A stretch of 28,695 nucleotides of DNA from Nitrospinota bacterium. GTDB lineage: Bacteria > Nitrospinota_A > UBA7883 > JACRLM01. The position numbers were made by a program, and so were the translations under genes. Below, piece by piece: positions 1,279 through 26,435 of this stretch; the first letter of the stretch is position 1; every line of letters starts with the position of its first letter. The notes under the pieces are model-generated. The model did not search any database. It was not told the origin of the DNA and saw only the letters and a list, made by a program, of their open reading frames with translations. The stretch spans positions 1-28,695 of the forward strand of contig JADGAO010000008.1 in assembly GCA_015231995.1 (NCBI GenBank), written 5' to 3'.

Positions 1279-1649
1279 GGGAGAATGGTATATGAAGAGA
1301 GACGTTGGGGCAATACTTCCAAAGTAAACCTAGTCGCTGACTTCTTACCCTCTCCCGCGCTATATCGCGGGAGAGGGCAGGGTGAGGGTGTCAAACAGTG
1401 TTTTTCAAATCCCTCATCCTTTTCAAGTCCCTCAAGTCTTTCAAGTCGCTCAAATGCTCCAAGTCGCTCACCTGCCGTTTCCAGCGCAAATGCTTTGGGT
1501 TATCCTGCGTATCAGCATGTTGAATAAAGGAACATGATGAGAGACGAGATTCGGTTTCCCGTGGCCACCCACCACGGAACCATGACCCTGGAGCGTGGAC
1601 GGCCAGAACGCGGGCGAGCTTTGTTGAGCGTCCGCGCTGTCTTTTTTGC

Positions 1650-1780
1650 GCGTGCGACCATTGTCATTCTGAGGCGAAGCCGAAGAATCCATTTAGAAAA
1701 GAATTTGTTCTACTTTGATCCTTCAGTCGCAAAGCTCCTTCAGGATGACAACGGTCGCAGAGCCTCCCTCAGGATGACAA
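1650..1780. repeat. Dispersed imperfect-palindrome repeat, family A (MITE-like)
   Basis: 'cattgtcattctgaggcgaagccgaagaatccat..gttctactttgatccttc..cctcaggatgacaa' is the reverse complement of the units at 22905-23115 and 21115-21215. Confidence 0.6.
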
Positions 1781-1871
1781 TGGGTAAAAGGCGCCCCCCC
1801 CCGGGGACGACTACGGGGAAGCAAGGGTGATATGTTAGCTGTAGAAAGATGGCAACCTGTTAGGACGCGGA

Positions 1872-2618
1872 ATGATAACGATGAATGAACGATGGTTAAA
1901 CTATACGGCTGAATGCGTTGGAACAGCATTCATGGTCGCCTTCGGACTTTCCTCCGTGGCTCTCTTCTGGAGCTCTTTTTCGCCCATTCCAGCTTTGATG
2001 CCAGACCCGGGCATTCGACGGCTTTTAACAGGCGCGTTATTTGCCACGGGCGTTGTGGCGGTCATTTATTCGCCTGTGGGTCGCAAAACAGGCGCGCATA
2101 TAAATCCTTCGGTGACGATCTCACTATTGTTCCTGAAAAAAATTGCGGCGCCGGACGCCTTCGGGTATGTTATCGCGCAATGTGTCGGCGCAGTATTCGG
2201 CAGTGGAGCGGTCTATCTGGTGTTCAATGTTCTTTTGGGATGGCACGATGGGTTAATGAAAGGCGTAACCCTTCCCGACCCGACATATGGAGCAGGCGCC
2301 GCATTCGCGGGGGAGCTGATATCCACATTCATTCTCATGGCCGCCATATTGGGAATGGCGAATTTCGGCCATCACTCGCGCTATACGGGTCTCGTCGTTG
2401 GCGCGGTCGTCACGCTGGCGGTATGGATTGAAGCGCCGTTTTCAGGAACCAGCCTCAATGCGGCCCGTAGTTTCGGCCCGGCGTTATTGACGGGTGAATG
2501 GAACGCATTTTGGGTTTATGCGGTGGCTCCGCTCGCGGGAGCGTTGATAGCCGCCGTATCCTATCGCCTGATTTTCCGTGGAGCCGGCAAATGCCCTGCC
2601 GGCTGTCGAGGAGCTTGA
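1872..2618 (+). CDS. MIP-family channel protein (aquaporin/glycerol-facilitator-like) with non-canonical NPS / NAA signature motifs
   Basis: 248 aa. N-terminus 'AECVGTAFMVAFG' resembles AqpZ 'AEFFGTFWLVFGG'. First half-helix motif 'GAHINPSVT' (NPS in place of NPA). Second motif 'GTSLNAARSFGPA' (NAA in place of NPA). Hydrophobic six-helix pattern. Confidence 0.8.
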   Translation: MITMNERWLNYTAECVGTAFMVAFGLSSVALFWSSFSPIPALMPDPGIRRLLTGALFATGVVAVIYSPVGRKTGAHINPSVTISLLFLKKIAAPDAFGYVIAQCVGAVFGSGAVYLVFNVLLGWHDGLMKGVTLPDPTYGAGAAFAGELISTFILMAAILGMANFGHHSRYTGLVVGAVVTLAVWIEAPFSGTSLNAARSFGPALLTGEWNAFWVYAVAPLAGALIAAVSYRLIFRGAGKCPAGCRGA

Positions 2619-2632
2619 AATTGACGGCGCTA

Positions 2633-3445
2633 TCACGAACTCCGCTTCATCAGCTCGGCCCTCACCTCTTCGGCGATCAACTCCTCTACACTGGCGTTGA
2701 GGCCAGGGGCCGGGGTCAGCGGGGCTTCCGCGTTCGTGGGACACGCGGAAAATTTGCCGCAGGCGTTGCACGAGTTGCACATGTCGGTAATAATCTTTTT
2801 CTTGGGCCAGCCCATCTTCTCGCCGATGGCCTGCAGGTTCTCTATCTGCGCGGCGGTCAACGGCTTTATATTGCCAATCTGCCGGGCGTGGAAGGTTATC
2901 TCCGCCACATGCTCCATCCGCTCCAGCGTGTTGTATGCGGCGAACACGTCCGTCCCCACCGTGACGGAGCCGTGACGGGCAAGTATCACCGCGTCGAAAT
3001 CCTTGATATGGCTCCTGACGGACTCGGCGACGTCAACCGTCGTAGGCGCGGCGTATTCGGCGGTTGGTATGGAGCCGAGCGTGAAGATGACCTCCGGCAG
3101 AAGGCATTTGGCAAGCGACACCCCAGCCAGCGAGAACGCCACGCACATCGTCGGATGCGCGTGGACGACCGAGTTTACGTCGGGCCGTTCGCGGTAGCAG
3201 GTCAGATGCAGGACCATCTCGGTGGACGGATTTCGCGAGCCTGCGATAAGTCTGCCGTCCATGTCCACCACGATAACGTCACGTTCGGACATGTAACCTT
3301 TGTGTATGCCCGTGGGGGTTATGAGGATTTTGTCGCGGGAGAGGCGCACGGAGACGTTGCCGTCCGTGCTGGATATCCATCCGCGATTGTGTATGCGTTT
3401 GCACACTTCAACGATGTCGCGCCTGCTTTGAGCTTCCGATTTCAT
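2633..3445 (-). CDS. Class II aldolase/adducin-family protein (L-fuculose-phosphate aldolase-like) with C-terminal Cys cluster and putative encapsulation peptide; BMC cargo
   Basis: 270 aa. 'GWISSTDGNVSVR..ILITPTG..HLTCYRERPDVNSVVHAHP' matches the class II aldolase fold including the metal-binding His region. C-terminal extension 'CNSCNACGKFSACP' is followed by a Pro/Ala linker and the amphipathic helix 'SVEELIAEEVRAELMKR'. It is the last gene of the BMC operon, overlapping by one stop/start with the BMC-P gene. Confidence 0.8.
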   Translation of the reverse strand: MKSEAQSRRDIVEVCKRIHNRGWISSTDGNVSVRLSRDKILITPTGIHKGYMSERDVIVVDMDGRLIAGSRNPSTEMVLHLTCYRERPDVNSVVHAHPTMCVAFSLAGVSLAKCLLPEVIFTLGSIPTAEYAAPTTVDVAESVRSHIKDFDAVILARHGSVTVGTDVFAAYNTLERMEHVAEITFHARQIGNIKPLTAAQIENLQAIGEKMGWPKKKIITDMCNSCNACGKFSACPTNAEAPLTPAPGLNASVEELIAEEVRAELMKRSS

Positions 3446-3448
3446 CTT

Positions 3449-3721
3449 CTACGCCTCCAGATCGACACTGTCCACGATCCCCTCGATAACCGAGTGGACG
3501 GGCGCGTTGTTATCCATAAAAAGCTGTCGCGCCGCGTTGCCTTCCACTGCAACCAGCACGACATCACCCGGCCCGGCCTGCGCGAAATCCACCGCCAGGA
3601 AGGTCTGCCCGTCGTCTTTCAGGTTTTCGTCGAGCGGCTGGACGATCATTATTTTGTGTCCGCGATAGACATCGTGTTGCACCGTGGACTGCACGTTGCC
3701 AACAACTCTCGCAAGTTTCAT
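3449..3721 (-). CDS. BMC vertex (pentamer) protein, EutN/CcmL/PduN family (BMC-P)
   Basis: 90 aa; 'MKLARVVGNVQSTVQHDVYRGHKIMIVQPLD..GPGDVVLVAVEGNAARQ' is the canonical EutN/CcmL pattern. Its start overlaps the upstream gene's stop (ATGA at 3718-3721). Confidence 0.85.
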   Translation of the reverse strand: MKLARVVGNVQSTVQHDVYRGHKIMIVQPLDENLKDDGQTFLAVDFAQAGPGDVVLVAVEGNAARQLFMDNNAPVHSVIEGIVDSVDLEA

Positions 3722-3990
3722 GGCGCCTCCCTGTTCACGATATCCACGATGCCGACGATGCCAGCGTCCACCGGGGTGAACGTCTCGTCGAGCGCCAGCG
3801 TGGCCTCTCTGCCAGCGACGTATGTAACGATGTCGCCTGGGCCGGACTGGATCGGGTCGGTTGCGATGATGGGCGAGCCTTTGGGTTTGCCGGCGTCGTC
3901 TATCGGCTGGATGATGAGTAGTTTCACCCCTTCGAGCGCCTCGTGTTTCACCGTCGCCACCACTCGTCCTATTACCTTGGCAAGATGCAT
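3718..3990 (-). CDS. BMC vertex (pentamer) protein, EutN/CcmL/PduN family (BMC-P)
   Basis: 90 aa; 'MHLAKVIGRVVATVKHEALEGVKLLIIQPID..GPGDIVTYVAGREA'. Second of three BMC-P paralogues. Confidence 0.85.
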   Translation of the reverse strand: MHLAKVIGRVVATVKHEALEGVKLLIIQPIDDAGKPKGSPIIATDPIQSGPGDIVTYVAGREATLALDETFTPVDAGIVGIVDIVNREAP

Positions 3991-3994
3991 GTCG

Positions 3995-4234
3995 TCAATC
4001 TCTATAATAGTATTTCATCGCTGTCCGGGGTGTTCTTCACCCCGGACTCTTATCCACGTGAACCTAACTTCGTCCCCCTTACCAAGGGGGACCGCCACGA
4101 AGTGGCGAGGGGGTTTAACCTCCCGGCGCTTTGCGCCACCCCCCTTATCAGGGGGGCTACCCCTCCGGCGCGATTACGCTCCACCTTCCCGATTTTCGGG
4201 GAGGAAAAAGAACACCCCGCCACGCGAAACCCGC
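3995..4234. repeat. GC-rich multi-hairpin intergenic element (family B), inverted partner of 7298-7545
   Basis: Contains 'cccccttaccaaggggga', 'ccccccttatcagggggg', 'ccggggtgttcttcaccccgg' and 'cccgattttcgggg'. The reverse complement aligns at roughly 75% by eye with 7340-7500 ('gcgccgggaggttaaaccccctcgcc..' vs 'gcgccggaggggttaggaaacccccgctcgc..'; 'cccctgataagggg' in both). Confidence 0.5.
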
Positions 4235-4792
4235 TTACAGCAGTTTGAGGTTTATGTCTTCATGCGGGTTGGGGATGATCTCTCTGCACACGAGCGTCCC
4301 TGCGGATTTGATTATCGCCACACCCGCCTCGACCGCCGCTTCCAGCTCGTTAAGCGGCCCGGTCATCGTGTAAAAAGATTTGCCGCCAAGCCCGTTGGCC
4401 ATGCGGACTTCGATCAGGCTAACGCCAGCCGCTTTCACCGCCGCGTCTGCGGAAAGTATCACAGAGGCCACGGTAAACGTCTCCACCACGCCGAGCGCAT
4501 CCATTTTGGGAACCACAGCGCAAGCCTGCATCGCAGGGATAAGCTGATGGCTCGCGTATGGCAGGAAAAGCTCGTCCACCACCATCTCCCCGCCGGTCGC
4601 CACGCCGATCCGATAAGACTCTTCCACCGCCGCCGTTTCCCCGGCGATGAGGATCATATATTTGCCGGGGCAAACAGTGCGCGCGTCCAGCAGGCGCACC
4701 GGGGCTTTCTTTACCATGTCGTCGGCGGTCTTCACCCCGCGCGCGATCGAGCGCAGTTCGATAAGCGCCACAGCTGGTTCTTTGAGGGTCAT
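4235..4792 (-). CDS. BMC-T shell protein with tandem BMC domains, PduT-like (resembles Haliangium BMC-T1); candidate Fe-S site
   Basis: 185 aa. Two BMC-domain cores: 'ALIELRSIARGVKTADDMVKKAPV' and 'ALGVVETFTVASVILSADAAVKAAGVSLIEV'. C-terminal 'IIPNPHEDI' parallels PduT 'VIPRPHEAM'. A Cys precedes the PGK motif ('TVCPGKYMIL') at the position of the PduT cluster ligand. Confidence 0.8.
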   Translation of the reverse strand: MTLKEPAVALIELRSIARGVKTADDMVKKAPVRLLDARTVCPGKYMILIAGETAAVEESYRIGVATGGEMVVDELFLPYASHQLIPAMQACAVVPKMDALGVVETFTVASVILSADAAVKAAGVSLIEVRMANGLGGKSFYTMTGPLNELEAAVEAGVAIIKSAGTLVCREIIPNPHEDINLKLL

Positions 4793-4901
4793 ATGGTTGA
4801 CAAAGCCTCGAATTGCCTATAAGATATATTCAGATTTGAAGGGATGAATGTCGGCCTCAGCGCCGTGTGAATTCCGGGTTTCCCGGAGGTTCCTAGTCCC
4901 T

Positions 4902-5960
4902 TCATTTTTTGTTTCCCCAAACATAATCGTTGTTTGTATAAACACGGTTTTCTCCGGGGCGTATCTCCTCAATGCGATCAACTTTGCCCCAGATATACTC
5001 GATATACCGCTCCTCGCCCCTTTCATAATATCTTTGCAACGCCCACAAACAGTAATCCACAACTTGCAACATAGGGTTTTGTGAAGGGTAGGTGCCGTTC
5101 AGCTGAATAAGTTTGCCTGAACGAACATGTTCACGTTGCATCTCATTAAGACGCAACATGTGTTTGACCTGATCCATAATTATCTTATGGTGCTTTAGAT
5201 TGCGAGATACTTCTTTCTGTTCACCTTCCAGGTCATCAAGAATGATCGTTACGTTCATATTCCCCGTCGCGCAATCTTCGGGTTGTATAAGTTGAAGCTT
5301 ATTGTCAATATCAGCCATTCTTTTCCTGATATCTTTTAATAGTTCATCGCCGAAGGCGAGGTGTGTTTCAACAGTATTGAAAATCTTTTCCCGCTCGTCA
5401 TAAAGAGCTTTCTCAAGAGCTTTTGTTTTTTCCCGGTTTCCCCGGAAAGCAAACAAAATATCTAGCCAATGGTTGGGATAATCTTTATTCAGCAAAAACG
5501 GCTTGAACAACTCGCGCGTCATTAATTCATAAGATTCGCTCTCTTTGTATCGGTAATTTTTATCCTCCAAATTCCTCGTCCGCACTGCGGCAAGCGTATC
5601 CTCCTTGTTTATTATGACGGCGGAAAACTTAATATCGAGTTTTTCAATAAACCTGTAAACCTTCCATCGAGCTTCGGGTATTTCATCTTTTGCGTGGAAT
5701 AACATTGCGGTCTTATTCGCCGAAGCCTGCATGGAAGGAACTTTCTTGAAATAGGGATCGCTACACAATTCTGATCTCAAGGAATCCAGTTCTTTTTCTA
5801 TGTGATTAGTTTCTTCGGCCGAGACAAAACCTAAAATGAAATATTTCGAGCACCCATCCGTTCCAATGATAACGTCACCGTGACGATTAAAAATAGCGCC
5901 ATCGCCGGTCTCATCCACGAAACAGCGCAATACTTTTATTGGATGTGGTGAAGAACTCAT
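4902..5960 (-). CDS. DUF3800-like protein (putative RNase H-fold/DExx-motif enzyme), compositionally foreign (low GC)
   Basis: 352 aa. N-terminal 'LRCFVDETGDG' resembles the DUF3800 'yiDESG' motif; C-terminal 'LQVVDYCLWAL' resembles its 'LQxaD' motif (family assignment from memory). GC is about 40% against about 60% in flanking genes. ATG at 5958-5960 overlaps the TGA of the PduS-like gene (ATGA). Confidence 0.5.
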   Translation of the reverse strand: MSSSPHPIKVLRCFVDETGDGAIFNRHGDVIIGTDGCSKYFILGFVSAEETNHIEKELDSLRSELCSDPYFKKVPSMQASANKTAMLFHAKDEIPEARWKVYRFIEKLDIKFSAVIINKEDTLAAVRTRNLEDKNYRYKESESYELMTRELFKPFLLNKDYPNHWLDILFAFRGNREKTKALEKALYDEREKIFNTVETHLAFGDELLKDIRKRMADIDNKLQLIQPEDCATGNMNVTIILDDLEGEQKEVSRNLKHHKIIMDQVKHMLRLNEMQREHVRSGKLIQLNGTYPSQNPMLQVVDYCLWALQRYYERGEERYIEYIWGKVDRIEEIRPGENRVYTNNDYVWGNKK

Positions 5961-7297
5961 TTCACTTGCCCGCTAATCCCGATGTGGCTTGTACTAATAG
6001 CGGTCACCACGCCGGAAATCGAGGCGTGGTATCTCGCGCCAAGTTTGCCCTCCGGTATCTCGCCGATCAACTGGCCCTTCGTCACTTTTTCACCCTGTTT
6101 CACAACGGGGAGCGCTGTAGCTCCGATATGCTGATTCAAAGGTATCCGCACGGACGATACAGGCCACGGCGCAGGGTCGAACGGCGCCTTAACGTCGTAC
6201 TCGCTAAGTCCGAGCCGTCTCATCAGCTTATCCGCCGGGACGCCACGGAACGGGCGGTAAGAATCTTGCGTCAGGTCTGCTCGCCTGTGCGGGTTTTTGA
6301 TTCCGGCCTCTCTCATCCGGCGTTTGAACTCCCGGTATATCACGCGGGGAGAGAGGAACATCGGACACGCCCACAGGTCACACAATCCGCACTCGCAACA
6401 GAGCCACGCCGACGTTATCGTGTCCGAATCCAGGTCGCGGTCATAGTTGATGACGCGCATTATTTTGTGAGGCTCCAGCCTGTGTCCCAAAAGGTAACGA
6501 GGGCAGAAATCGGTGCAGTACCGGCACACTTCGCAGGCGGATTTGCCGATGCGTATCTCCGTGGAGAGCGGACGCGCCATACGCATGACGTGGCTGTGGT
6601 CTTTCGGCAAAACGAAAAGCCCGCCGGTGGTCTTGGTAACGACCTCGTTCATATCCTCCGTGACACGTCCCATCATCGGGCCGTTGACCAGGATGACGTA
6701 GTCGTCTATCTTCACACCAAGGCGGGGGATGATTTCGCCAAACGCGGTTCCCACAGGGATGAACGCCACCTTCGGGTTGTCCATAGCCCCGCCAAGCGTT
6801 ACAATCCGCTCCGTCACCGGTTTGCCGTTCACGGCTTCTGCGATGTTCACCATCGTGCCCACGTTGATAACGACCACGCCGACATCCAGCGGGATGCCGC
6901 CTTCCGGCACGGCGCGGCCTGTGGCCTCGAATACAAGATAATGTTCATCGCCCGCAGGGTACACGTTGTCCAGCTCCAGCACGCTTACGCCATGCTTGCC
7001 AGCCTGATCCCGAAACGACTTCACCGCGTGGTCATATTTTTGTTTCACGCCGATGACGCCTTTAACCTCGGAGCCTGTCCGTCCCGAAATCTCATCTACG
7101 ATTTTTCTAAGCGTCGCCACGATATCGCCAGCGCGCGTTTCCATCAGATGAAGGTCGCCGCACATGAGCGGCTCGCATTCCGCGCCGTTGACGATGACAG
7201 TGTTGACGGCGGAGGCGAGTTTTATGTGAGTCGGGAACCCCGCGCCACCCGCGCCAATTACCCCGGCCTGCCGCGCTAAATCGGCTACAGTGGGCAT
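5957..7297 (-). CDS. RnfC/NuoF-like Fe-S flavoprotein, PduS-like (BMC-associated oxidoreductase)
   Basis: 446 aa. N-terminal Gly-rich nucleotide-binding motif 'VIGAGGAGFPTHIKL' (complex I 51K / RnfC). Two Cys clusters 'CEVCRYCTDFCP' and 'CCECGLCDLWACP' (2x[4Fe-4S]). C-terminal barrel-sandwich-like 'VKQGEKVTKGQLIGEI..ISGVVTAI'. Lies inside the BMC operon. Confidence 0.75.
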   Translation of the reverse strand: MPTVADLARQAGVIGAGGAGFPTHIKLASAVNTVIVNGAECEPLMCGDLHLMETRAGDIVATLRKIVDEISGRTGSEVKGVIGVKQKYDHAVKSFRDQAGKHGVSVLELDNVYPAGDEHYLVFEATGRAVPEGGIPLDVGVVVINVGTMVNIAEAVNGKPVTERIVTLGGAMDNPKVAFIPVGTAFGEIIPRLGVKIDDYVILVNGPMMGRVTEDMNEVVTKTTGGLFVLPKDHSHVMRMARPLSTEIRIGKSACEVCRYCTDFCPRYLLGHRLEPHKIMRVINYDRDLDSDTITSAWLCCECGLCDLWACPMFLSPRVIYREFKRRMREAGIKNPHRRADLTQDSYRPFRGVPADKLMRRLGLSEYDVKAPFDPAPWPVSSVRIPLNQHIGATALPVVKQGEKVTKGQLIGEIPEGKLGARYHASISGVVTAISTSHIGISGQVK

Positions 7298-7545
7298 AAT
7301 GCGGGATTGGTGTTGTTTGTCAAAGATCGGGTCGCGCCTCTTTTTGCCCCCGCCCCTTGCGGGAGAGAGCTTGCCCTGAGTCTTCCGAAGGGGTGGCTCC
7401 CCTGATAAGGGGAGGTGACGCGTCTTCGCGCCGGAGGGGTTAGGAAACCCCCGCTCGCTTCGCTCGCCGCCCCCTTGTCAGGGGGCCTAAGAACGTTACG
7501 CAAAGCCTCCCTAGGCACGGGGGACAAATGGAAGATTGGCATAAT
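7298..7545. repeat. GC-rich multi-hairpin intergenic element (family B), inverted partner of 3995-4234
   Basis: 'ctcccctgataaggggag', 'cccccttgtcaggggg', 'gcgccggaggggttaggaaaccccc'. Alignment with the reverse complement of 3995-4234 is given under that feature. Confidence 0.5.
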
Positions 7546-9003
7546 TCAAATGATCCTGAATCTGTCTTTTAACGTGCAACGGCGTTCCCGGGTGAAGTTT
7601 ATTGCCGTCGTCAGGCCCTCTCCGGTGGGGCTTGCTATCGTGAAAGATGTGTAACCCTCGCCGCCCCATCCGAGGCCGGCGTAGCTTGGGCCGTTCTTTA
7701 TGAAAAGGGAGGTGTTTATCGCACGCGCCATTTTCGACAGGTTGTCCACGTTCGTCGAATGCATCACTGCGGTGTGGCCGAAACCGTGTTCCACCTTTCT
7801 GGCGAGCTCGATACCTTCGTCCACATCGGCGACGCGCACGAGCGGCAACACAGGCGTCAACTGCTCCATTATGACGAGCGGGTTGGTTTTCTCCGCTTCG
7901 AATACGATGAGGCGCACATCCTCGGATGTCTCCACGCCGATGGCGCGTAATATCTTGCCCGCGTCTTTGCCCACCCAGCTTTTGTTCATCACCCCATGGT
8001 CGCCGGGGCCTTGCGGGGCGCGTTCTATTATGAGCTTCTCAAGTTTTTTCACCTGATGCGGGTTAAGCTCGTATGCGCCCGATTTTTTCATTTCGCGCTT
8101 AAGCGCGTCGGCGACCTTGTCCACGCAGATAAGGACTTTTTCCACTATGCACACTATATTGTTGTCGAACGAGGCTCCGTCAACCACATGCTTGGCCGCT
8201 TCGGCGATGTTGGCGGTTTCGTCAACGACGACGGGAGGGTTGCCCGGCCCTGCCGCGATTACTTTCTTGCCGGAGTTCATCGCCGCTTTCACGACGGCCG
8301 GCCCTCCGGTGACGACAAGCAGGCGTATGTCGGGATGGCGCATAAGCTCCCCGGCGCTCTCCACAGTGGGGCTTGCGATTTCCGTAAGCAGGTTCGCCGG
8401 GCCGCCAGCAGAGATTATCGCTTCGTTGAGCAGGTTGATCATGTACGAGGTGACGTTCTTCGCCGTCGGATGGGCGTTGAAGACGACCGCGTTGCCGCCT
8501 GCGATCATCCCAATGGCGTTGCACAGCACCGTCTCCGTAGGGTTCGTGCAAGGCGTGATGGAGCCGATGACCCCGTATGGCGCGCGTTCCATCAGCGCTA
8601 TGCCGTCGTCGCCTGTGAAGGCGCGAGGTTCCAGAATCTCGATTCCCGGCGTTTTTTCGACAGCGAGCGTGTTTTTGAGTATTTTATCGGCTACTCGGCC
8701 CAATCCTGTCTCCTCGACGGCCATCTTCGACAGGTTAGGTATCTCGCGCCGCACGGCTTCACGCATGGCGTTAATCATCAGCCTGCGTTCCGCCAGCGGG
8801 TATGAATCCAGCGAGATGAACGCCGCTTTTGCAGAAGCCACGGCCTCGTTGACAGTCGCGTAACTGCCGATACGTTTTCCGTTACTCGTGGGAATGGTTT
8901 GAGCTGGTAAAACCGGGGCCAGTTTCGCTCCGGCTTTGGAGGCGGAAAGCCTCGCCGCGACCCGTTCCACGATGCCCGCTATCTGGTCTTTGTCCAGCGT
9001 CAT
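7546..9003 (-). CDS. Aldehyde dehydrogenase (CoA-acylating, PduP/EutE-like) with N-terminal encapsulation peptide
   Basis: 485 aa Aldedh-family fold ('GSYATVNEAVASAKAAF..', 'ASPTGEG', conserved NAD-binding Gly-rich segments). N-terminal amphipathic helix 'DQIAGIVERVAARL' plus an Ala/Pro/Ser linker precede the catalytic domain. RBS 'GGAGG' sits 8 nt upstream. Confidence 0.85.
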   Translation of the reverse strand: MTLDKDQIAGIVERVAARLSASKAGAKLAPVLPAQTIPTSNGKRIGSYATVNEAVASAKAAFISLDSYPLAERRLMINAMREAVRREIPNLSKMAVEETGLGRVADKILKNTLAVEKTPGIEILEPRAFTGDDGIALMERAPYGVIGSITPCTNPTETVLCNAIGMIAGGNAVVFNAHPTAKNVTSYMINLLNEAIISAGGPANLLTEIASPTVESAGELMRHPDIRLLVVTGGPAVVKAAMNSGKKVIAAGPGNPPVVVDETANIAEAAKHVVDGASFDNNIVCIVEKVLICVDKVADALKREMKKSGAYELNPHQVKKLEKLIIERAPQGPGDHGVMNKSWVGKDAGKILRAIGVETSEDVRLIVFEAEKTNPLVIMEQLTPVLPLVRVADVDEGIELARKVEHGFGHTAVMHSTNVDNLSKMARAINTSLFIKNGPSYAGLGWGGEGYTSFTIASPTGEGLTTAINFTRERRCTLKDRFRII

Positions 9004-9018
9004 GAATCAAGCCTCCGG

Positions 9019-9333
9019 TCAGACATCCGCCGTTTTCGCAGACGCATACTTTGTGTAAACGGTCTTGTCGTCAACGTCCCATGTGTCCACGATGCCCATG
9101 ACGACAGCGTCCACAGGCTTGCCGTTGGTGATATCCGTCTGCCGCGCGGACGAGCCTGTGGCGTACAGCACCACCTCGCCAAGCCCCGCGCCAACCGAAT
9201 CCGCCGCCACGACGTAACCTTTGCCCACCTCGCCTGTGACATCCACGTTGCGCACGAGAAGCAGTTTTAACCCCTCAAGCGATTCCGCCTTGCGGGTCGA
9301 GACAACCGTCCCGGCCACTTTTCCGAACAACAT
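9019..9333 (-). CDS. BMC vertex (pentamer) protein, EutN/CcmL/PduN family (BMC-P)
   Basis: ATG at 9331-9333 gives '[49 protein letters not shown]'. The longer ORF-track N-terminus (to 9423) is not family-like and overlaps the BMC-H gene. Confidence 0.8.
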
Positions 9334-9337
9334 GGCT

Positions 9338-9631
9338 TCACTCCGCCGCGATGGCTTTTCTGCCCAGCGGAAGCGCAAGGTCGATGTTGCTGTGCGGCCT
9401 GGGGATGACATGGACGGAGACAAGCTCGCCCACTTTCTCCGCCGCGCGCGAACCGGCCTCGGTTGCCGCCTTCACAGCCGCAACGTCGCCGCGCACGATG
9501 GCGGTGACATACCCTCCGCCGATTTTCTCGTATCCCACCAGCTCGACCTTCGCCGCTTTCAGCATGGCGTCGGAGGCTTCGACCATGCCGACAAAACCCT
9601 TGGTCTCGATCATTCCCAATGCGTCTGACAT
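9338..9631 (-). CDS. BMC-H hexameric shell protein (PduA/EutM/CcmK family)
   Basis: ATG at 9629-9631 gives '[63 protein letters not shown]', a near-consensus BMC domain. The upstream TTG in the ORF track is unlikely to be the start. Confidence 0.9.
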
Positions 9632-9655
9632 CTTTGACAATCTCCAAAAAAGACG

Positions 9656-10291
9656 TTATTCAGCTTTTCCCTTTTTCGCTGCTTTTCCCGTGACGCTCTC
9701 CAGAGCTTTCACGGCGGCGTCTGCGGCGGAGTCGATCTCCGCTTCAGAGCCTGACATGTAAAGCCGTCCGAACGCGCCGAACGGCCGCACTTCCACTAGT
9801 TTTACGTTGGCCGCTTTCTCCGCCTCGTTCGCGGCGAAAATGGCGTAACCGGCAGGCTCTGTCTCCAGTATGAAAAGCGACTCGCCCGGCAAAATCATGG
9901 AGCCGCTTTTGTTCCTGTTGATGAGCTGGCACTGGTAAGCCTCCATGCTCCGTATGATCTGGTTGGCGACGATGGTGGGCTTTATCCTGTCGGCCTCTGT
10001 GACGCCCAGATGGTCGAGTATCGCCCTCCCGGCGCTTATAACCTCGCCTTTGTCCATGTCGTGCACTTCAAGAAGGCCGTAAGCGCGTTCGACAATCTGC
10101 ACGGCTGGCTGGACTTTCGTGGCTTTCAGAGCCACGTCGGTCACGCGGTTGATGGCCAACCCCGGAGCAATCTCCACAAACAGGGACGCAACCCCCGGCA
10201 CGGGCAGGAAACCTTTGGCGGTGGAGCCTATGTAGGAGGCCAGCTGATCCTGGAGGCTGTCGAGGAATATGAAAGTCCTAAGTGTGATCAT
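9656..10291 (-). CDS. BMC-T shell protein with tandem BMC domains, CcmP/CsoS1D-like (resembles Haliangium BMC-T2)
   Basis: Start '[71 protein letters not shown]' and second domain '[47 protein letters not shown]' closely parallel, from memory, the Haliangium ochraceum BMC-T2 sequence ('[62 protein letters not shown]'). ATG at 10289-10291. Confidence 0.75.
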
Positions 10292-10337: not shown

Positions 10338-11153
10338 TCAATACTGCTTCGCTGTTATCACGTCTTCGATCTTCCGTATGCTGGTGAGCGCCCTCTCGCC
10401 GCGCCGCAACCCCAACGCCACATGCAGAAGGTCTATGATGCTCGCCTGCGCGATTCTGGAGGCCAAAGCCTCGCTCCGAAACCTCGTCTCCTTGCTCGAT
10501 GTCACCAACGTCACGTCCGACGCTTTCGCAAGCGGCGACAACAGGCTGTTCGTCACCGCAACGGCGCGAGCGCCCGCGTTGCGCCCGACCCGCACCGTCT
10601 CCACCGGGTCCTTGGTGGAGCCGGAATGGCTTATCGCCAATATCGCGTCGCCTTTTTTAAGCAGGGCCGCCTCCATCATCTGCAGGTGTCCGTCTGTCTG
10701 CAAAGTCACCGGAAGCCCAAGCCGCATAAGCTTCGTGTACGCGTCGAACGCGATGGGAGCCGACGTGCCTACGCCGATAATAAGAGTTCTACCCGCATTG
10801 TCCAGTATGCCGATGGCCCGCTCCACGGAACGTGGGTCTATCACGGCGAGCGTGTCTTTTAATGTGCTGATGTTGGCTTCGAACACCTTGCCCGCCAGCG
10901 CGGCCACGTCGTCTTTTTCGGTGATAGCCTCGTGGATCGCGCCTGCGATGGGTGTTACAAGCTCACGGGCCAGGGCTATCTTAAGGTCGGCGAAACCGAG
11001 GAAATTGGCCGCCCTGCAAAACCGTATGACCGTGGCCTCGGATACACCCGCTTCCCGCGCCACCTCGCCGACAGACATGCCGATGGCGTTCTCCGCGTTT
11101 TTCAATATGAACTCGCCCACCTTGCGCTCCGCCGGTAGAAGGGACGGCAACAT
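10338..11153 (-). CDS. RpiR/MurR-family transcriptional regulator (HTH_6 + SIS phosphosugar-binding domain)
   Basis: From ATG at 11151-11153: '[45 protein letters not shown]' is the canonical RpiR N-terminal HTH. SIS domain '[35 protein letters not shown]'. Co-oriented and 25 bp upstream of the first shell gene. Confidence 0.8.
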
Positions 11154-11467
11154 GCCGCTCACTTTCCCGGTGGCGCCCGGCCCGTGGGCGCGGCTGACTG
11201 CTCCCCTTGTCTTTGGCCTACGCTGTGATCTTCCGGTTGCTATGGTCATATCCATTCCACTTTCCATGAGGCTCTTCGCAGTCTCGATGATTATAGTCCG
11301 CGCCATTCCGCGTGTCAAGTAAAACTACATATCAATTAAGTATCCATGAAGTAAAATTTCATAGAACGCATGGTTGCAAGGTGGCCGCTGACCAGTTTTG
11401 ATTTTAGGGCGTTGCGGGGGCAATCTTGGGGGGCGTGGAAGAAATGTCCGGCGCTGAGTGGGACGCC
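11154..11467. promoter_or_regulatory. Large intergenic/5' region upstream of the BMC regulator and operon, AT-rich core with small inverted repeats
   Basis: The 11319-11380 stretch 'taaaactacatatcaattaagtatccatgaagtaaaatttcatagaacgcatgg' is markedly AT-rich in a GC-rich genome. It contains the IR 'atgaa-N7-ttcat' and the outer IR 'ccatg..catgg'. Likely promoter and operator region; no specific site is proven. Confidence 0.3.
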
Positions 11468-17724: not shown

Positions 17725-17935
17725 TTGTCATTCTTGTGCGCCCCTTGTCATTCTGAACGAGCGCAGTGAAGTGAAGAATCCATCGAAGGAACATTTTGTT
17801 CTACTTTGATCCTTCGGTTGCCGGAGGCTCCCTCAGGATGACAAAAACATTGTCATTCTGAGCCCTTCGCTTTGCTCAGGGTAAACTCCGCGAAGAATCC
17901 ATCAAAAAATTTTTACTCTACTTCGATCTTTAACC
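17725..17935. repeat. Dispersed repeat family A (about two units plus the 'gtaaactccgcgaagaatccatc' module)
   Basis: 'gtcattctgaacgagcgcagtgaagtgaagaatccatc..gttctactttgatccttcgg..ggctccctcaggatgacaa..gtcattctgagcccttcgctttgctcagggtaaactccgcgaagaatccatc' matches units at 1650-1780, 21108-21275 and 22866-23115. Confidence 0.6.
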
Positions 17936-17996: not shown

Positions 17997-19445
17997 TCAA
18001 TCGGCGTTCGGATTGTCGCTTACAACGGGTTTTGGGGCGCCTGAAACATCGGCGGACGCGATTTCCCTGCCCATATCCGGTTTTATGAAAACTGGCTTTA
18101 TATGTTTGTCCACATCCGGCTTGTTGTTGACGCAACGCAGTTTTTTGAACAGGAAGTCGAACTTGGCCTCCAGCTCCCCCCGCAGTTTGACCTTCGTCTC
18201 TTCGGGCATCGTCCACAGCTCTTCTTTGACCAGGCCAAAGCCTTTTTTGCGGGTCTTGTAGATGAACTGCTCCTCGGTCTGTCCTGATTTCCACTCGTCC
18301 TTGAAATTTTCCTTCAACAACGAATACATCTTCTCCCTCATAGCCTTTGGCAGATTGGGCGAATCGTAAATCATGTTCTGGAACCCCGTGGCCAGATGAA
18401 CCTCAGATGTCGTGGCTTCCGGGAACCTGTGGAACGCTTCGTCGGGCAGGGTGGAGGCGCCATGCTGAACCGCGCCTGAAAGACCATACTTCTCCCTGGC
18501 CGTTTTGCTCATTTTCTCCAGCGTATCGAAATCCAGTTTCACCTGGGCCACAGTGCCGTCCGGCAGTGGGATACCGCCGTGCGACGTGCCTGTCTGCACC
18601 GACACTTTGCTGATGCCCTTGAGATTGGCGCCATGTTTCTTGAGGCTGGCGTTATACCCGTCCATATAAGCGACCAGTTCCTCGACGGTGGAGTTTTTCT
18701 CCCCGACTTCGCCGATTTCACCGCCGACAGATACGGTCAATCCGGCAGGCTCCTGACTGCGGACATGGGCGGTAAGCTCCGCGCCGACTTCAAAATTAGC
18801 CCTCTGTTGCTCGTAAATTGTAGGCTTGGAGAGGTCAACGAGCGTGGAAGTGTCTATGTCTATGTTATAGAACCCGGCGGCAAGGGCCTCAGTGATGAGT
18901 TTTTTAAGGCCCTCTATCTCCTTGGCGGGATCGGCCTTGAATTTCTTGACGTTCACCTGGAAATGGTCGCCCTGCACAAACACTGGGCCACTCCAGCCTT
19001 CCTTGATTCCGGCGGCGAGCATGACGACGGCGTATTCGGCGGGACGCTGGAAAGTGTAATCAATCTCCGACTTTGCGATTTCGAATATGAACGGGCCGGA
19101 GCCGTTTTTGATTGCGGCGTGGAAAAGGGCGCGGGCCACGTCGTATGTCATTCCGCGGATGTTGACGGCGGGAACGGTGTAACCTTTCACCTCGCCTCTG
19201 CCCATCGCCTCGTACAACCCCTCTATGGAGGCGCAGTAAACTCCCAAATCCAGCCCGGCGGACTTTATCGCCCAACGCGCCGTTCCCCGTATTGCGGGCG
19301 TCTGTCCGAAAACGGCGTTATAAATGAGCAGGTCAATGGCCTTCTCGCGGAACGCCGCGCGATCGGACACTTTCACGGCGCCGTTGTCAACCTTGGCGCA
19401 GTTGGATATAGCGGCCAGAAGCTCTTTTTCGGTTTGAACTTTCAT
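17997..19445 (-). CDS. Class II fructose/tagatose-bisphosphate aldolase-family protein (long form, ~480 aa)
   Basis: Family motifs 'VQGDHF' (DH), 'VGGEIGEVGEK' (ELGxxGG-like), 'VQTGTSHGG' and 'VQHGASTLP' (HGgSG). The ~100-aa C-terminal extension is unusual for the family. Confidence 0.65.
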   Translation of the reverse strand: MKVQTEKELLAAISNCAKVDNGAVKVSDRAAFREKAIDLLIYNAVFGQTPAIRGTARWAIKSAGLDLGVYCASIEGLYEAMGRGEVKGYTVPAVNIRGMTYDVARALFHAAIKNGSGPFIFEIAKSEIDYTFQRPAEYAVVMLAAGIKEGWSGPVFVQGDHFQVNVKKFKADPAKEIEGLKKLITEALAAGFYNIDIDTSTLVDLSKPTIYEQQRANFEVGAELTAHVRSQEPAGLTVSVGGEIGEVGEKNSTVEELVAYMDGYNASLKKHGANLKGISKVSVQTGTSHGGIPLPDGTVAQVKLDFDTLEKMSKTAREKYGLSGAVQHGASTLPDEAFHRFPEATTSEVHLATGFQNMIYDSPNLPKAMREKMYSLLKENFKDEWKSGQTEEQFIYKTRKKGFGLVKEELWTMPEETKVKLRGELEAKFDFLFKKLRCVNNKPDVDKHIKPVFIKPDMGREIASADVSGAPKPVVSDNPNAD

Positions 19446-19617: not shown

Positions 19618-19675
19618 TTTGTCATCCTGAGGGAGCTCTAGCGACCGATCAAAGTATAATTGAACATTCTATCGT
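19618..19675. repeat. Half-unit of repeat family A followed by GC hairpin 'gcgggcg ggac gcccgc'
   Basis: 'ttgtcatcctgagggagctctagcgaccgatcaaagta' is the left arm of the family A unit. Confidence 0.5.
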
Positions 19676-21107: not shown

Positions 21108-21275
21108 CAGGATGACAATGTTCTTGTCATCCTGAGGGAGGCTCTGCGACCGAAGGATCAAAGTAGAATAGAATATTCTTTTTGATAGATTCTTCGCGTT
21201 GCTCAGAATGACAAACTCTGATGGATTCTTCGCGGAGTTTACCCTGAGTCCTCGAAGGGCTCGCAATGACAATCG
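21108..21275. repeat. Dispersed repeat family A (one full palindromic unit plus the 'gatggattcttcgcggagtttaccctgag' module)
   Basis: 'ttgtcatcctgagggaggctctgcgaccgaaggatcaaagtagaatagaatattctttttgatagattcttcgcgttgctcagaatgacaa'. Confidence 0.6.
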
Positions 21276-22865: not shown

Positions 22866-23115
22866 CGTCATCCTGAGGGGGCTTCTCTTTGTCATTATGA
22901 GGGAGCTTTTTTTGTCATCCTGAGGGAGCCTTAGCGACCGAAGGATCAAAGTAGAACAGGATATTCTATTTGATAGATTCTTCGGCTTCGCCTCAGAATG
23001 ACAATACCACCGCTCAGAATGACAATGTTTTTTGTCATCCTGAGGGAGCCTTAGCGACCGAAGGATCAAAGTAGAATAAAGCATTCTTTTGATGGATTCT
23101 TCACTTCGTTCAGAA
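22866..23115. repeat. Two tandem full units (plus a partial) of palindromic repeat family A; the 3' unit supplies the stop codon of the heptosyltransferase gene
   Basis: Units at ~22905-23010 and ~23025-23115: 'ttgtcatcctgagggagccttagcgaccgaaggatcaaagtagaa(N5)attct(n)tttgat(r)gattcttc(N3-4)tcg(NN)tcagaatgacaat'. Left and right arms are imperfect reverse complements, giving a ~90-nt hairpin potential. Confidence 0.65.
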
Positions 23116-24093
23116 TGACAATGATCGCGCCGTTTCCACAATCTCGTCAACCGATACCGCTGTCATGCAACGGTGGTCTGTTGGACATTCGCGTTTGAAA
23201 CAGGGCGCGCAATCGGCCTTGTGCCGGATGACCGTCACGTTGGCTCCCAGCGGCTTTGTCTCCTCTGGCGACGTGGGGCCGAAAATAGCGATAGTCGGCG
23301 CGCCAAGCCCCGCAGAGATGTGCATGGGGCCGGTGTCGTTTGTGACATAGAGGGATAGGCGCGACATCACCGCCGCAAGCGTCGCAAGATCGGTCTTACC
23401 CACCAGCGATATCGCCTTGCTGTCTGCAAGCGTCATTATCTCCCGCTCCATCTCCCTGTCGGACTCCGCTCCAAGCAAAACCACATCCGCTCTTTCCGCA
23501 AGCCTGCCGATCAACTCCGCGTAACGATCCTTCGCCCACATCTTGGCGTGTCCGTATGTCGCGCCAAACCCCAGCCCGACAAGCGGACGCGCCGTCTTCG
23601 GCAACAGCTCATACGACCTTTGCAAGGCCGACGATGGAATGGTTAGGCTGACCGGCCCGATAGTTATCTCCGGGAATACCGCCTGCGCCACGCGAAGGTA
23701 ATAGTCGCTCATGTGCATGGAGTGAGGCTCTGGGCGTTTGACCCGATGGGTAAGCAGAACAGACCGGAAGTCGCTGGCGTAACCTGCGCGGACTGGAACG
23801 CCCGCCCGCCACATCTCCCACGCCGAACGGAACGAGTTTGGCAATATCAGCGCTGTGTCGTAACGCGCCTGCCGCACGGCGTTGATGGCGGAAGCGGAGT
23901 CGCCCTCCAGCTTTATCACATCGTCCACGCCGGGGATTATCGCGCCAAGCCCAGCCATGCCGCTTTTAATCATGAGGCTCACGGAAACGTCAGGGCGGCT
24001 TTTTTTGATAGCGCAGATCATAGGCGCGGACATCACGCAATCGCCCAGCCAGTTGGGCATACGGATGATCAGGCGTGATGGTGAAGATGTCAT
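23110..24093 (-). CDS. ADP-heptose:LPS heptosyltransferase (glycosyltransferase family 9, WaaF/WaaC-like)
   Basis: 'LIIRMPNWLGDCVMSAPMI' and 'TNDTGPMHISAGLGAPTIAIFGPTSP' match GT9 heptosyltransferase motifs. ATG overlaps the upstream stop (ATGA at 24090-24093). Confidence 0.85.
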   Translation of the reverse strand: MTSSPSRLIIRMPNWLGDCVMSAPMICAIKKSRPDVSVSLMIKSGMAGLGAIIPGVDDVIKLEGDSASAINAVRQARYDTALILPNSFRSAWEMWRAGVPVRAGYASDFRSVLLTHRVKRPEPHSMHMSDYYLRVAQAVFPEITIGPVSLTIPSSALQRSYELLPKTARPLVGLGFGATYGHAKMWAKDRYAELIGRLAERADVVLLGAESDREMEREIMTLADSKAISLVGKTDLATLAAVMSRLSLYVTNDTGPMHISAGLGAPTIAIFGPTSPEETKPLGANVTVIRHKADCAPCFKRECPTDHRCMTAVSVDEIVETARSLSF

Positions 24094-26374: not shown

Positions 26375-26435
26375 CAATATTGTCATTCTGAGGCGAAGCC
26401 GAAGAATCCATCTAAAAAACAATTTGTTCTACCCG
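26375..26435. repeat. Half-unit of repeat family A
   Basis: 'cattctgaggcgaagccgaagaatccatctaaaaaacaatttgttctac' is near-identical to 1660-1710. Confidence 0.5.

Follow-up and report, generated by a model that had tools for sequence, protein, structure and literature searches.

Many metabolosomes regenerate NAD+ without an alcohol dehydrogenase (ADH), and a mechanism for this was published by Sutter et al. (2024, PNAS, PMC11626177), who renamed the PduS homologs of bacterial microcompartments (BMCs) MNdh and the Cys-bearing homologs of the shell protein PduT BMC-T^SE. In that work, the CP(G/S)K motif of the partner shell protein was universally conserved, the two genes were adjacent in 97% of loci and MNdh co-occurred near-exclusively with an aldehyde dehydrogenase (AldDH); 361 BMC loci carried the pair and no ADH, while 1,725 MNdh loci also had an ADH. 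The C. botulinum pair co-purified as a stable complex containing flavin mononucleotide (FMN) and Fe-S clusters and oxidized NADH with a kcat of ~20 s^-1. Electron paramagnetic resonance (EPR) spectroscopy showed that NADH reduces the BMC-T^SE cluster, voltammetry resolved five redox waves, and X-ray footprinting was also used. Here, we describe a BMC operon on a complete 28,695-bp contig of a Nitrospinota metagenome-assembled genome (MAG) (JADGAO010000008.1; the whole contig is referred to as the window), which, read from sequence alone, points to the same mechanism.

Two BMC types of the catalogue of Sutter et al. (2021), HO type II and SPU5, are closest to this operon. HO type II loci carry nearly all components in the main locus, and neither the HO type II nor the SPU5 description names a phosphotransacylase (PTAC) or an ADH. 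For SPU types, a 2024 paper states that PduS/MNdh can recycle NAD+ and, for loci lacking a PTAC gene, remarks that acetyl-CoA 'could exit the shell'. We consider it probable that the window encodes a metabolosome operon of the SPU5 type, built on an HO type II backbone, that recycles NAD+ by electron export through MNdh and BMC-T^SE. As the mechanism (2024) and the locus type (2021) are already on record, the new element is Nitrospinota as the host phylum: in a literature search with 'Nitrospin' and 'microcompartment', neither term appeared in any retrieved title or abstract, and 'Nitrospin' was not found in the text and searched supplements of the 2021 catalogue.

A PduS-type flavoprotein and its cysteine-bearing shell partner

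The two genes on which this reading depends, and their key motifs, are the following.

5957-7297, minus strand: MNdh, FMN and 2x[4Fe-4S] flavoprotein, 446 aa (NCBI MBF0290717.1 / MBF0633475.1)
7232-7255, minus strand: MNdh 'GAGGAGFP' FMN/NADH motif (G15-AGGAGFP22)
6503-6535, minus strand: MNdh Fe-S motif 1 (C255/258/261/265-P)
6365-6400, minus strand: MNdh Fe-S motif 2 (C300/303/306/311-P)
4235-4792, minus strand: BMC-T^SE, tandem BMC-domain trimer, 185 aa (two PF00936 stretches)
4670-4672, minus strand: Cys codon of the BMC-T^SE pore motif C41-P-G-K

A preliminary description of this DNA had identified the first protein as an NAD(H)-binding 2x[4Fe-4S] flavoprotein of the RnfC/NuoF type, and the intact 446-aa open reading frame (ORF) bears this out. 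Its Pfam domains are PF01512 (Complex1_51K, residues 9-153, E 1e-36), PF13534 (4Fe-4S dicluster, residues 254-315) and a C-terminal PF13375 (RnfC barrel, residues 381-438), and the closest solved structures are RnfC subunits (7zc6_C, 9eri_C and 8ahx_C, E 1e-48 to 1e-38). An alignment with five orthologs of 63-93% identity shows no variation in 'GAGGAGFP' or in the two Cys motifs with their eight cysteines. The RnfC model TIGR01945 scores the protein at 239 bits, slightly under its cutoff of 246. RnfC models pick up the protein only beyond profile position ~124, and its barrel lies at the C-terminus; it is therefore circularly permuted, as is characteristic of PduS-type proteins. It thus has in common with RnfC (Rnf complex) and NuoF (complex I) the FMN/NADH fold and the 2x[4Fe-4S] ferredoxin domain, but differs from both in its permuted barrel, in the lack of other rnf genes and in having a shell protein, not membrane subunits, as its partner. 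The AldDH gene lies directly upstream. Judged by these features, the protein corresponds to the published four-domain, circularly permuted definition of MNdh.

The partner, BMC-T^SE, aligns along its entire length to the PduT structures 3pac and 3n79, and its top matches in the PDB are 3nwg (2e-44), C. freundii PduT 3pac (4e-40) and Salmonella PduT 3n79 (1e-36), with HO-T1 at ~1e-30. Around the pore, 'artvCpgky' of the window protein aligns without gaps to 'sktiCpgkf' of 3pac and to 'sktiSpgkf' of 3n79, which we take to be the C38S variant of the Salmonella PduT cluster ligand. Cys41 of the window protein therefore shares a column with PduT Cys38, the 4Fe-4S ligand, as had been proposed for the cysteine of 'TVCPGKY'; the misalignment that would have spoken against that proposal was not seen. 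'VCPGKY' is kept in four Nitrospinota orthologs, and the trimer presumably holds one 4Fe-4S cluster.

The window accordingly resembles the published MNdh/BMC-T^SE module in its domain set, its CPGK pore motif, its acylating AldDH and its lack of an ADH. It differs in that the two genes are not adjacent, that the host belongs to Nitrospinota and that the module is known here from its sequence.

The operon is complete within the window

A single minus-strand operon spans ~11,320 to 2,633. Its order is RpiR/SIS regulator, BMC-T^dp, BMC-H, BMC-P, AldDH, a 248-nt spacer and MNdh, followed by a DUF3800 gene, BMC-T^SE, a 243-nt spacer, two BMC-P genes and a class II aldolase. The regulatory and remaining shell components are as follows.

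11290-11318, minus strand: sigma-70-type promoter-like site, TTGACA-17-TATAAT, preceding the RpiR gene (12/12 consensus match only)
10338-11267, minus strand: RpiR-family regulator with HTH_6 and a SIS sugar-phosphate-binding domain (PF01418 5e-18, PF01380 1e-17)
9656-10288, minus strand: BMC-T^dp, 210 aa, a tandem shell protein of the double-stacking CsoS1D/CcmP type whose pore is gated
9338-9631, minus strand: BMC-H hexamer shell protein, 97 aa (PF00936 1e-30; 97-99 aa in relatives)
9019-9333, minus strand: BMC-P pentamer, first of the triplet, 104 aa (PF03319 8e-24)
3718-3990, minus strand: BMC-P pentamer, second of the triplet, 90 aa (PF03319 1.5e-28)
3449-3721, minus strand: BMC-P pentamer, third of the triplet, 90 aa (PF03319 1.8e-23)

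The start of the RpiR regulator is ambiguous (11267, 11255 or 11153), and its gene heads the cassette in all relatives. H. ochraceum HO-5816 (5v74, E 2e-94) is the closest PDB entry for BMC-T^dp, with CcmP and CsoS1D next; the NCBIfam CcmP model gives 284 bits, and PF27545 (CsoS1D_N) is present in the copies of the relatives. The closest PDB entry for the first BMC-P is likewise from H. ochraceum, namely the BMC-P within 5v74 (E 8e-28).

With the 12/12 promoter match ahead of the RpiR gene and a convergent gene beyond the aldolase, both ends of the operon fall within the window. That convergent gene encodes a MIP-family channel (1872-2618, plus strand) and is kept in the related locus L002 but not in L003, L005 and L007; it stands outside the conserved cassette, and its product may facilitate passage of a small polyol or acid.

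The locus lacks genes for a phosphotransacylase and an alcohol dehydrogenase

Pfam scans of the non-antisense ORFs of the window found none of PF06130 (PTAC), PF01515 (Pta), PF00465 (Fe-ADH) or PF00107/PF08240 (Zn-ADH). As queries for tblastn, we used the PTAC, Zn-ADH and Fe-ADH of L014, a complete-core locus of the GRM5 type. Searched in six frames across the window plus 15 other loci (252 kb), none of them gave a match at E<=1. The MNdh and AldDH of the same locus served as positive controls; they matched the window at 7e-84 and 2e-133, respectively, and matched at 1e-47 to 1e-136 wherever such genes exist across the loci. In the related loci, a PTAC or ADH never occurs within ~10 kb of the cassette. 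The earlier statement that the locus encodes neither enzyme is thus upheld by two independent blanks, one of them with working controls. It had been left open that a PTAC or an encapsulation-peptide-tagged ADH might sit just outside the window in the same operon; as the operon is complete inside the window, no gene of the same operon can lie immediately beyond it.

Relatives and microcompartment type

The same ten-gene cassette is found in Nitrospinota MAGs and metagenome contigs with flavoprotein identities of 58-93% and in different genomic neighbourhoods; the relatives at 58-63% identity came from a scan of GTDB genomes. In L002, L003 and L005 the MNdh and BMC-T^SE genes are adjacent and overlapping. 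In the window they are kept apart by one inserted gene, DUF3800, which places the pair in the ~1.8% 'two genes away' class. Judging from these relatives, the ancestral arrangement would have been an adjacent pair, as in the published survey.

A distant relative, L016 (5437-11772 of a 4.58-Mb contig), has the order RpiR-T^dp-H-P-AldDH-P-P-aldolase-T^dp and is devoid of the MNdh/BMC-T^SE pair. No PTAC and no ADH were found in this locus either, leaving it without any encoded cofactor-recycling enzyme. Because this pair-less locus also goes without both enzymes, their absence is a feature of the HO/SPU5 backbone and predates, or is independent of, the MNdh/BMC-T^SE module. The view that the pair is present 'instead' of a PTAC and an ADH does not survive this comparison. 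A 205-aa gene of L016 had been considered as a Cys-less BMC-T^s for comparison and was set aside, as it is unrelated to BMC proteins.

By component match to the catalogue descriptions and by the PDB affinity to HO proteins, the locus is best understood as an HO type II backbone that has received a PduS/PduT module directly after AldDH, a combination catalogued as SPU5. With HO type II it has in common one BMC-H, a BMC-P triplet, a BMC-T^dp of the CsoS1D clade, an AldDH with an N-terminal encapsulation peptide (EP) and a pfam00596 aldolase with two BMC-P genes, and its gene order is that of L016 except for the inserted pair. It departs from the HO type in its single BMC-T^dp. A pore cysteine is missing from the HO BMC-T^s (HO-T1), which also usually lacks an accompanying PduS, whereas the window BMC-T^s has both and is closer to PduT than to HO-T1. 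SPU5, as defined in Supplementary Data 2 of Sutter et al. (2021), comprises an AldDH with an N-terminal EP and a pfam00596 aldolase with a C-terminal EP, without pfam02502; all of this holds for the window. The catalogued SPU5 members are Proteobacteria and one Chloroflexi, unlike the Nitrospinota host here, and half of the SPU5 loci have a DeoC aldolase (pfam01791), which the window lacks. A strict-sense SPU BMC was rejected, as it requires the DeoC-type pfam01791 and RpiB pfam02502, and neither is present in the scanned window ORFs. In the PVM and GRM5 metabolosomes, which serve fuculose- and rhamnulose-phosphate pathways, a pfam00596 aldolase feeds an aldehyde to an acylating AldDH, as is presumed for the window, but those loci are complete-core (L014 has a PTAC, a Zn-ADH and a Fe-ADH), whereas the window has neither PTAC nor ADH. 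It therefore does not show the PTAC and ADH beside AldDH that characterize a canonical complete-core metabolosome.

Set beside L016, the window cleanly exemplifies addition of the module to an HO type II backbone, which supports the published idea that the module is a mobile general-purpose add-on. The comparison also sharpens the question for this organelle family, namely by what route CoA is recycled and by what means relatives lacking the pair recycle NAD+.

Cargo enzymes

Besides MNdh, two enzymes with terminal extensions are encoded in the operon.

7546-9003, minus strand: CoA-acylating AldDH, EutE/PduP type, 485 aa (NCBIfam NF011927, 665 bits against a cutoff of 403)
8947-8994, minus strand: AldDH N-terminal encapsulation peptide, residues 4-19
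8149-8151, minus strand: AldDH catalytic Cys285 ('NNIVC' invariant)
2633-3445, minus strand: class II metal-dependent FucA-fold aldolase, 270 aa (PF00596 8e-50)
2759-2779, minus strand: aldolase tri-Cys motif C223/C226/C229 ('CNSCNACGK')
2639-2695, minus strand: aldolase C-terminal encapsulation helix, residues 251-269, after a disordered linker (AlphaFold2 model of the aldolase, pLDDT 84.9, helix confidently predicted)

The N-terminal helix of the AldDH, 'DQIAxIVERVxxRL', is conserved, and the linker that follows it varies in length and sequence. This extension, from its sequence, and that of the aldolase, from its sequence and predicted structure, have the standard layouts of encapsulation peptides.

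The class II aldolase is presumed to be the signature enzyme. In Foldseek searches its neighbours were FucA, YgbL/OtnC and DrdA (5-deoxyribulose-1-phosphate aldolase), all at ~28-30% identity, and none of the NCBIfam equivalogs attained its cutoff against the protein. As these three are equally distant and no equivalog reaches cutoff, we do not assign a substrate.

The aldolase carries a further feature, C223-x2-C226-x2-C229, located directly after the catalytic domain, before the linker that leads to the EP helix. All 120 closest homologs have the motif (120/120, 53-91% identity), Myxococcota included, as do 19 of 150 more distant representatives, mostly those with EP-like tails. Together with C114 of the catalytic domain, the three cysteines are invariant in 50 diverse aldolase sequences. 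The AlphaFold2 pLDDT of this block is only 53. Since the aldolase of L016, a locus without MNdh, has the motif too, it is not tied to the MNdh/BMC-T^SE pair. The tri-Cys block may be a metal or Fe-S site; it is apparently undescribed in the BMC literature consulted and offers a small lead for BMC biochemists.

In Minicystis rosea (CP016211.1; L015, 8949-10897), an orthologous EP-bearing aldolase with the tri-Cys motif stands alone, with no shell genes within 10 kb. It adjoins a TRAP-type transporter (DctM, DctQ, TAtT), which could hint at an imported substrate in HO-type organisms.

Proposed electron route and alternative explanations

In the organelle that we propose, a shell of one BMC-H, three BMC-P, one gated BMC-T^dp and one BMC-T^SE, under RpiR/SIS control, would enclose three enzymes: the aldolase with its C-terminal EP, the AldDH with its N-terminal EP, and MNdh. 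Going by its family, the aldolase would cleave a ketose-1-phosphate into dihydroxyacetone phosphate and a small aldehyde (lactaldehyde or acetaldehyde), and the AldDH, likewise by family, would convert the aldehyde to acyl-CoA with reduction of NAD+ to NADH. By analogy with the C. botulinum homologs, MNdh would sit on the lumenal face of the BMC-T^SE trimer and oxidize NADH at its FMN. Electrons would then pass from FMN through the two 4Fe-4S clusters of MNdh to the single 4Fe-4S cluster of the pore, held by three Cys41 residues, and on to a cytosolic acceptor, as expected from the same homologs. An ADH would be dispensable, because NAD+ would be regenerated without an alcohol by-product. CoA recycling, for which the cassette has no gene, is a matter of speculation: the gated BMC-T^dp pore might let acyl-CoA and CoA in and out of the shell, or a housekeeping Pta might act outside. 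The proposal that lumenal NADH is re-oxidized through the flavoprotein and the Cys-bearing trimer had been made in the preliminary description; every defining sequence feature is present, and the route is the same as in the model of Sutter et al. (2024), so that this part holds as a prediction.

Several points weigh against this interpretation. The backbone of L016 comes without pair, ADH and PTAC; since such a pair-less organelle can apparently work, the MNdh/BMC-T^SE pair may be accessory and not the sole recycler. Identity to MNdh of the GRM5 type is ~37%. The window protein stays under threshold for one of the four MNdh domains, PF10531 (SLBB), though a 67% ortholog that aligns to the window MNdh throughout receives a weak call for it. 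For the published module, AlphaFold models disagree on the shell face that MNdh binds (PMC11626177). Finally, because the DUF3800 gene splits the pair and the flanking repeats carry promoter- and terminator-like sites (see below), co-expression and stoichiometry of the two proteins may be disturbed.

Satellite loci are common for BMCs, most MNdh loci (the 1,725 mentioned above, PMC11626177) also carry an ADH, and the MAG is fragmentary, with a single 28.7-kb contig in view. A PduL/Pta and an encapsulated ADH encoded elsewhere in the genome could thus complete the core, and MNdh/BMC-T^SE would then be a redundant second route to NAD+, as in Salmonella Pdu. We regard this as unlikely, given that the cassette is conserved without PTAC or ADH in every relative, across different neighbourhoods, and that the 361 loci with the pair and no ADH are known (PMC11626177).

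A bolder extension of the electron-export reading, which we put forward with comparable doubt, is a minimal core of just three enzymes (aldolase, AldDH and MNdh) in a genome that encodes no CoA recycling for the organelle. CoA and acyl-CoA would pass through BMC-T^dp, and Cys114 and the tri-Cys block of the aldolase would form a metal or Fe-S site linked to the redox state of the lumen. If true, a minimal core with CoA crossing the shell would contradict the view that metabolosomes maintain a 'private CoA pool'.

It is more improbable still that no cofactor is recycled within the organelle, with NAD(H) and CoA/acyl-CoA exchanged through BMC-T^dp and the pair scavenging lumenal O2 or sensing redox. 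L016, with two BMC-T^dp genes and without MNdh/BMC-T^SE, ADH and PTAC, would fit such an exchange, and Sutter et al. (PMC11626177) concede that exchange through larger pores is possible and found that O2 acts as an acceptor in vitro. However, MNdh occurs almost exclusively with AldDH and beside BMC-T^SE in 97% of loci, the BMC-T^SE cluster is reduced by NADH in vitro (PMC11626177), and the module directly follows AldDH here, an arrangement kept down to 58% identity.

Lastly, the historical assignment of Salmonella PduS (summarised in PMC11626177) would make the flavoprotein a cobalamin reductase that regenerates B12 for a B12-dependent enzyme, a reading that we dropped as extremely improbable, since neither the window nor the related loci encode a diol or ethanolamine lyase, an adenosyltransferase, a reactivase or any other B12 enzyme, the signature enzyme is a metal-dependent aldolase, and the purified MNdh complex oxidizes NADH without cobalamin (PMC11626177).

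A passenger gene and repeats within the MNdh/BMC-T^SE segment

Compared with its 87% relative L002, the window contains three insertions, which carry the features listed here.

4799-6002, minus strand: 1.2-kb insertion relative to L002; carries the DUF3800 gene, supplies the last ~15 MNdh codons and splits the pair
4902-5960, minus strand: DUF3800 gene, 352 aa, RNase H2-like family (PF12686 1e-9; PADLOC DUF3800_VII 8e-9)
7298-7545, no strand: hairpin-rich repeat insert between AldDH and MNdh; lineage-specific, inverted copy of the 3991-4233 element
7323-7296, minus strand: promoter-like site just upstream of MNdh, within the repeat insert
3991-4233, no strand: hairpin-rich repeat insert between BMC-T^SE and BMC-P; lineage-specific
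4230-4214, minus strand: terminator-like hairpin just after BMC-T^SE, within the repeat insert

The DUF3800 gene, which separates MNdh from BMC-T^SE and went unmentioned in the preliminary description, has an ATG that overlaps the MNdh stop codon. Its GC content is 0.416 and its GC content at third codon positions 0.448, against 0.58-0.61 and 0.70-0.77 in the neighbouring genes. The DE ('VDETGD') and QxxD ('QVVD') motifs of the family are present. A DUF3800 gene occupies the same site in L007, an 88% relative, and is lacking in L002, L003 and L005. As the L007 copy sits at the same site and yet is only 71% identical at the amino acid level, the gene can be regarded as an older, retained and faster-evolving passenger. 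It is likely a selfish or defence gene; the DUF3800 RNase H2-like family is known as the effector of type VII retrons. A retron context was nevertheless discarded here, with no reverse transcriptase nearby and no Rfam match at gathering threshold in the window. At E<=1, Rfam returned nothing in 3900-7700 except two chance eukaryotic families.

The two repeat inserts of ~245 nt are 75-80% identical by blastn in inverted orientation, for example CCCCCTTACCAAGGGGG and CCCCTTATCAGGGG. Both are absent from the 87-88% relatives L002 and L007. They lie on either side of the MNdh-DUF3800-BMC-T^SE segment and are possible MITE- or REP-like elements.

Other features of the contig

The remaining genes of the contig are unrelated housekeeping genes (PilZ, SerRS, GyrA, HtrA, lipopolysaccharide genes and his genes). 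Three further ORFs, 7285-7542 (85 aa), 9000-9242 (80 aa) and 9267-9647 (126 aa), match no family and run through repeat DNA or, in other frames, through real shell genes; we therefore do not count them as genes. A glycyl-radical microcompartment, which ORF sizes had suggested, was rejected: the 863-aa ORF encodes GyrA, and that of 261 aa a TPR protein. A 482-aa protein (17997-19445, minus strand) gives a weak match to class II ketose-bisphosphate aldolases (PF01116, 4e-16), far under the NCBIfam cutoffs. Members of that family are usually shorter, and gyrA and other genes lie between this protein and the BMC operon.

A second intergenic repeat family has copies at 1652-1780, 17736-17844, 19619-19659, 21124-21214, 22912-23128 and 26379-26432. 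These are 75-94% identical, are tandem or nested around 22912-23128 and occur also at 7520-7987 of L001, a second NCBI assembly of the organism (GCA_015234085.1). L001 is 99.8% identical to the window over 1405-9270; past the MIP gene it runs into RimP/NusA and not into an ABC-transporter gene, with the junction at window ~1405 and L001 ~7866. That L001 joins different DNA at this point is probably due to the intergenic scatter of the second repeat family, and since synteny with L002 and L003 favours the window arrangement, L001 probably represents a chimeric join at a repeat.

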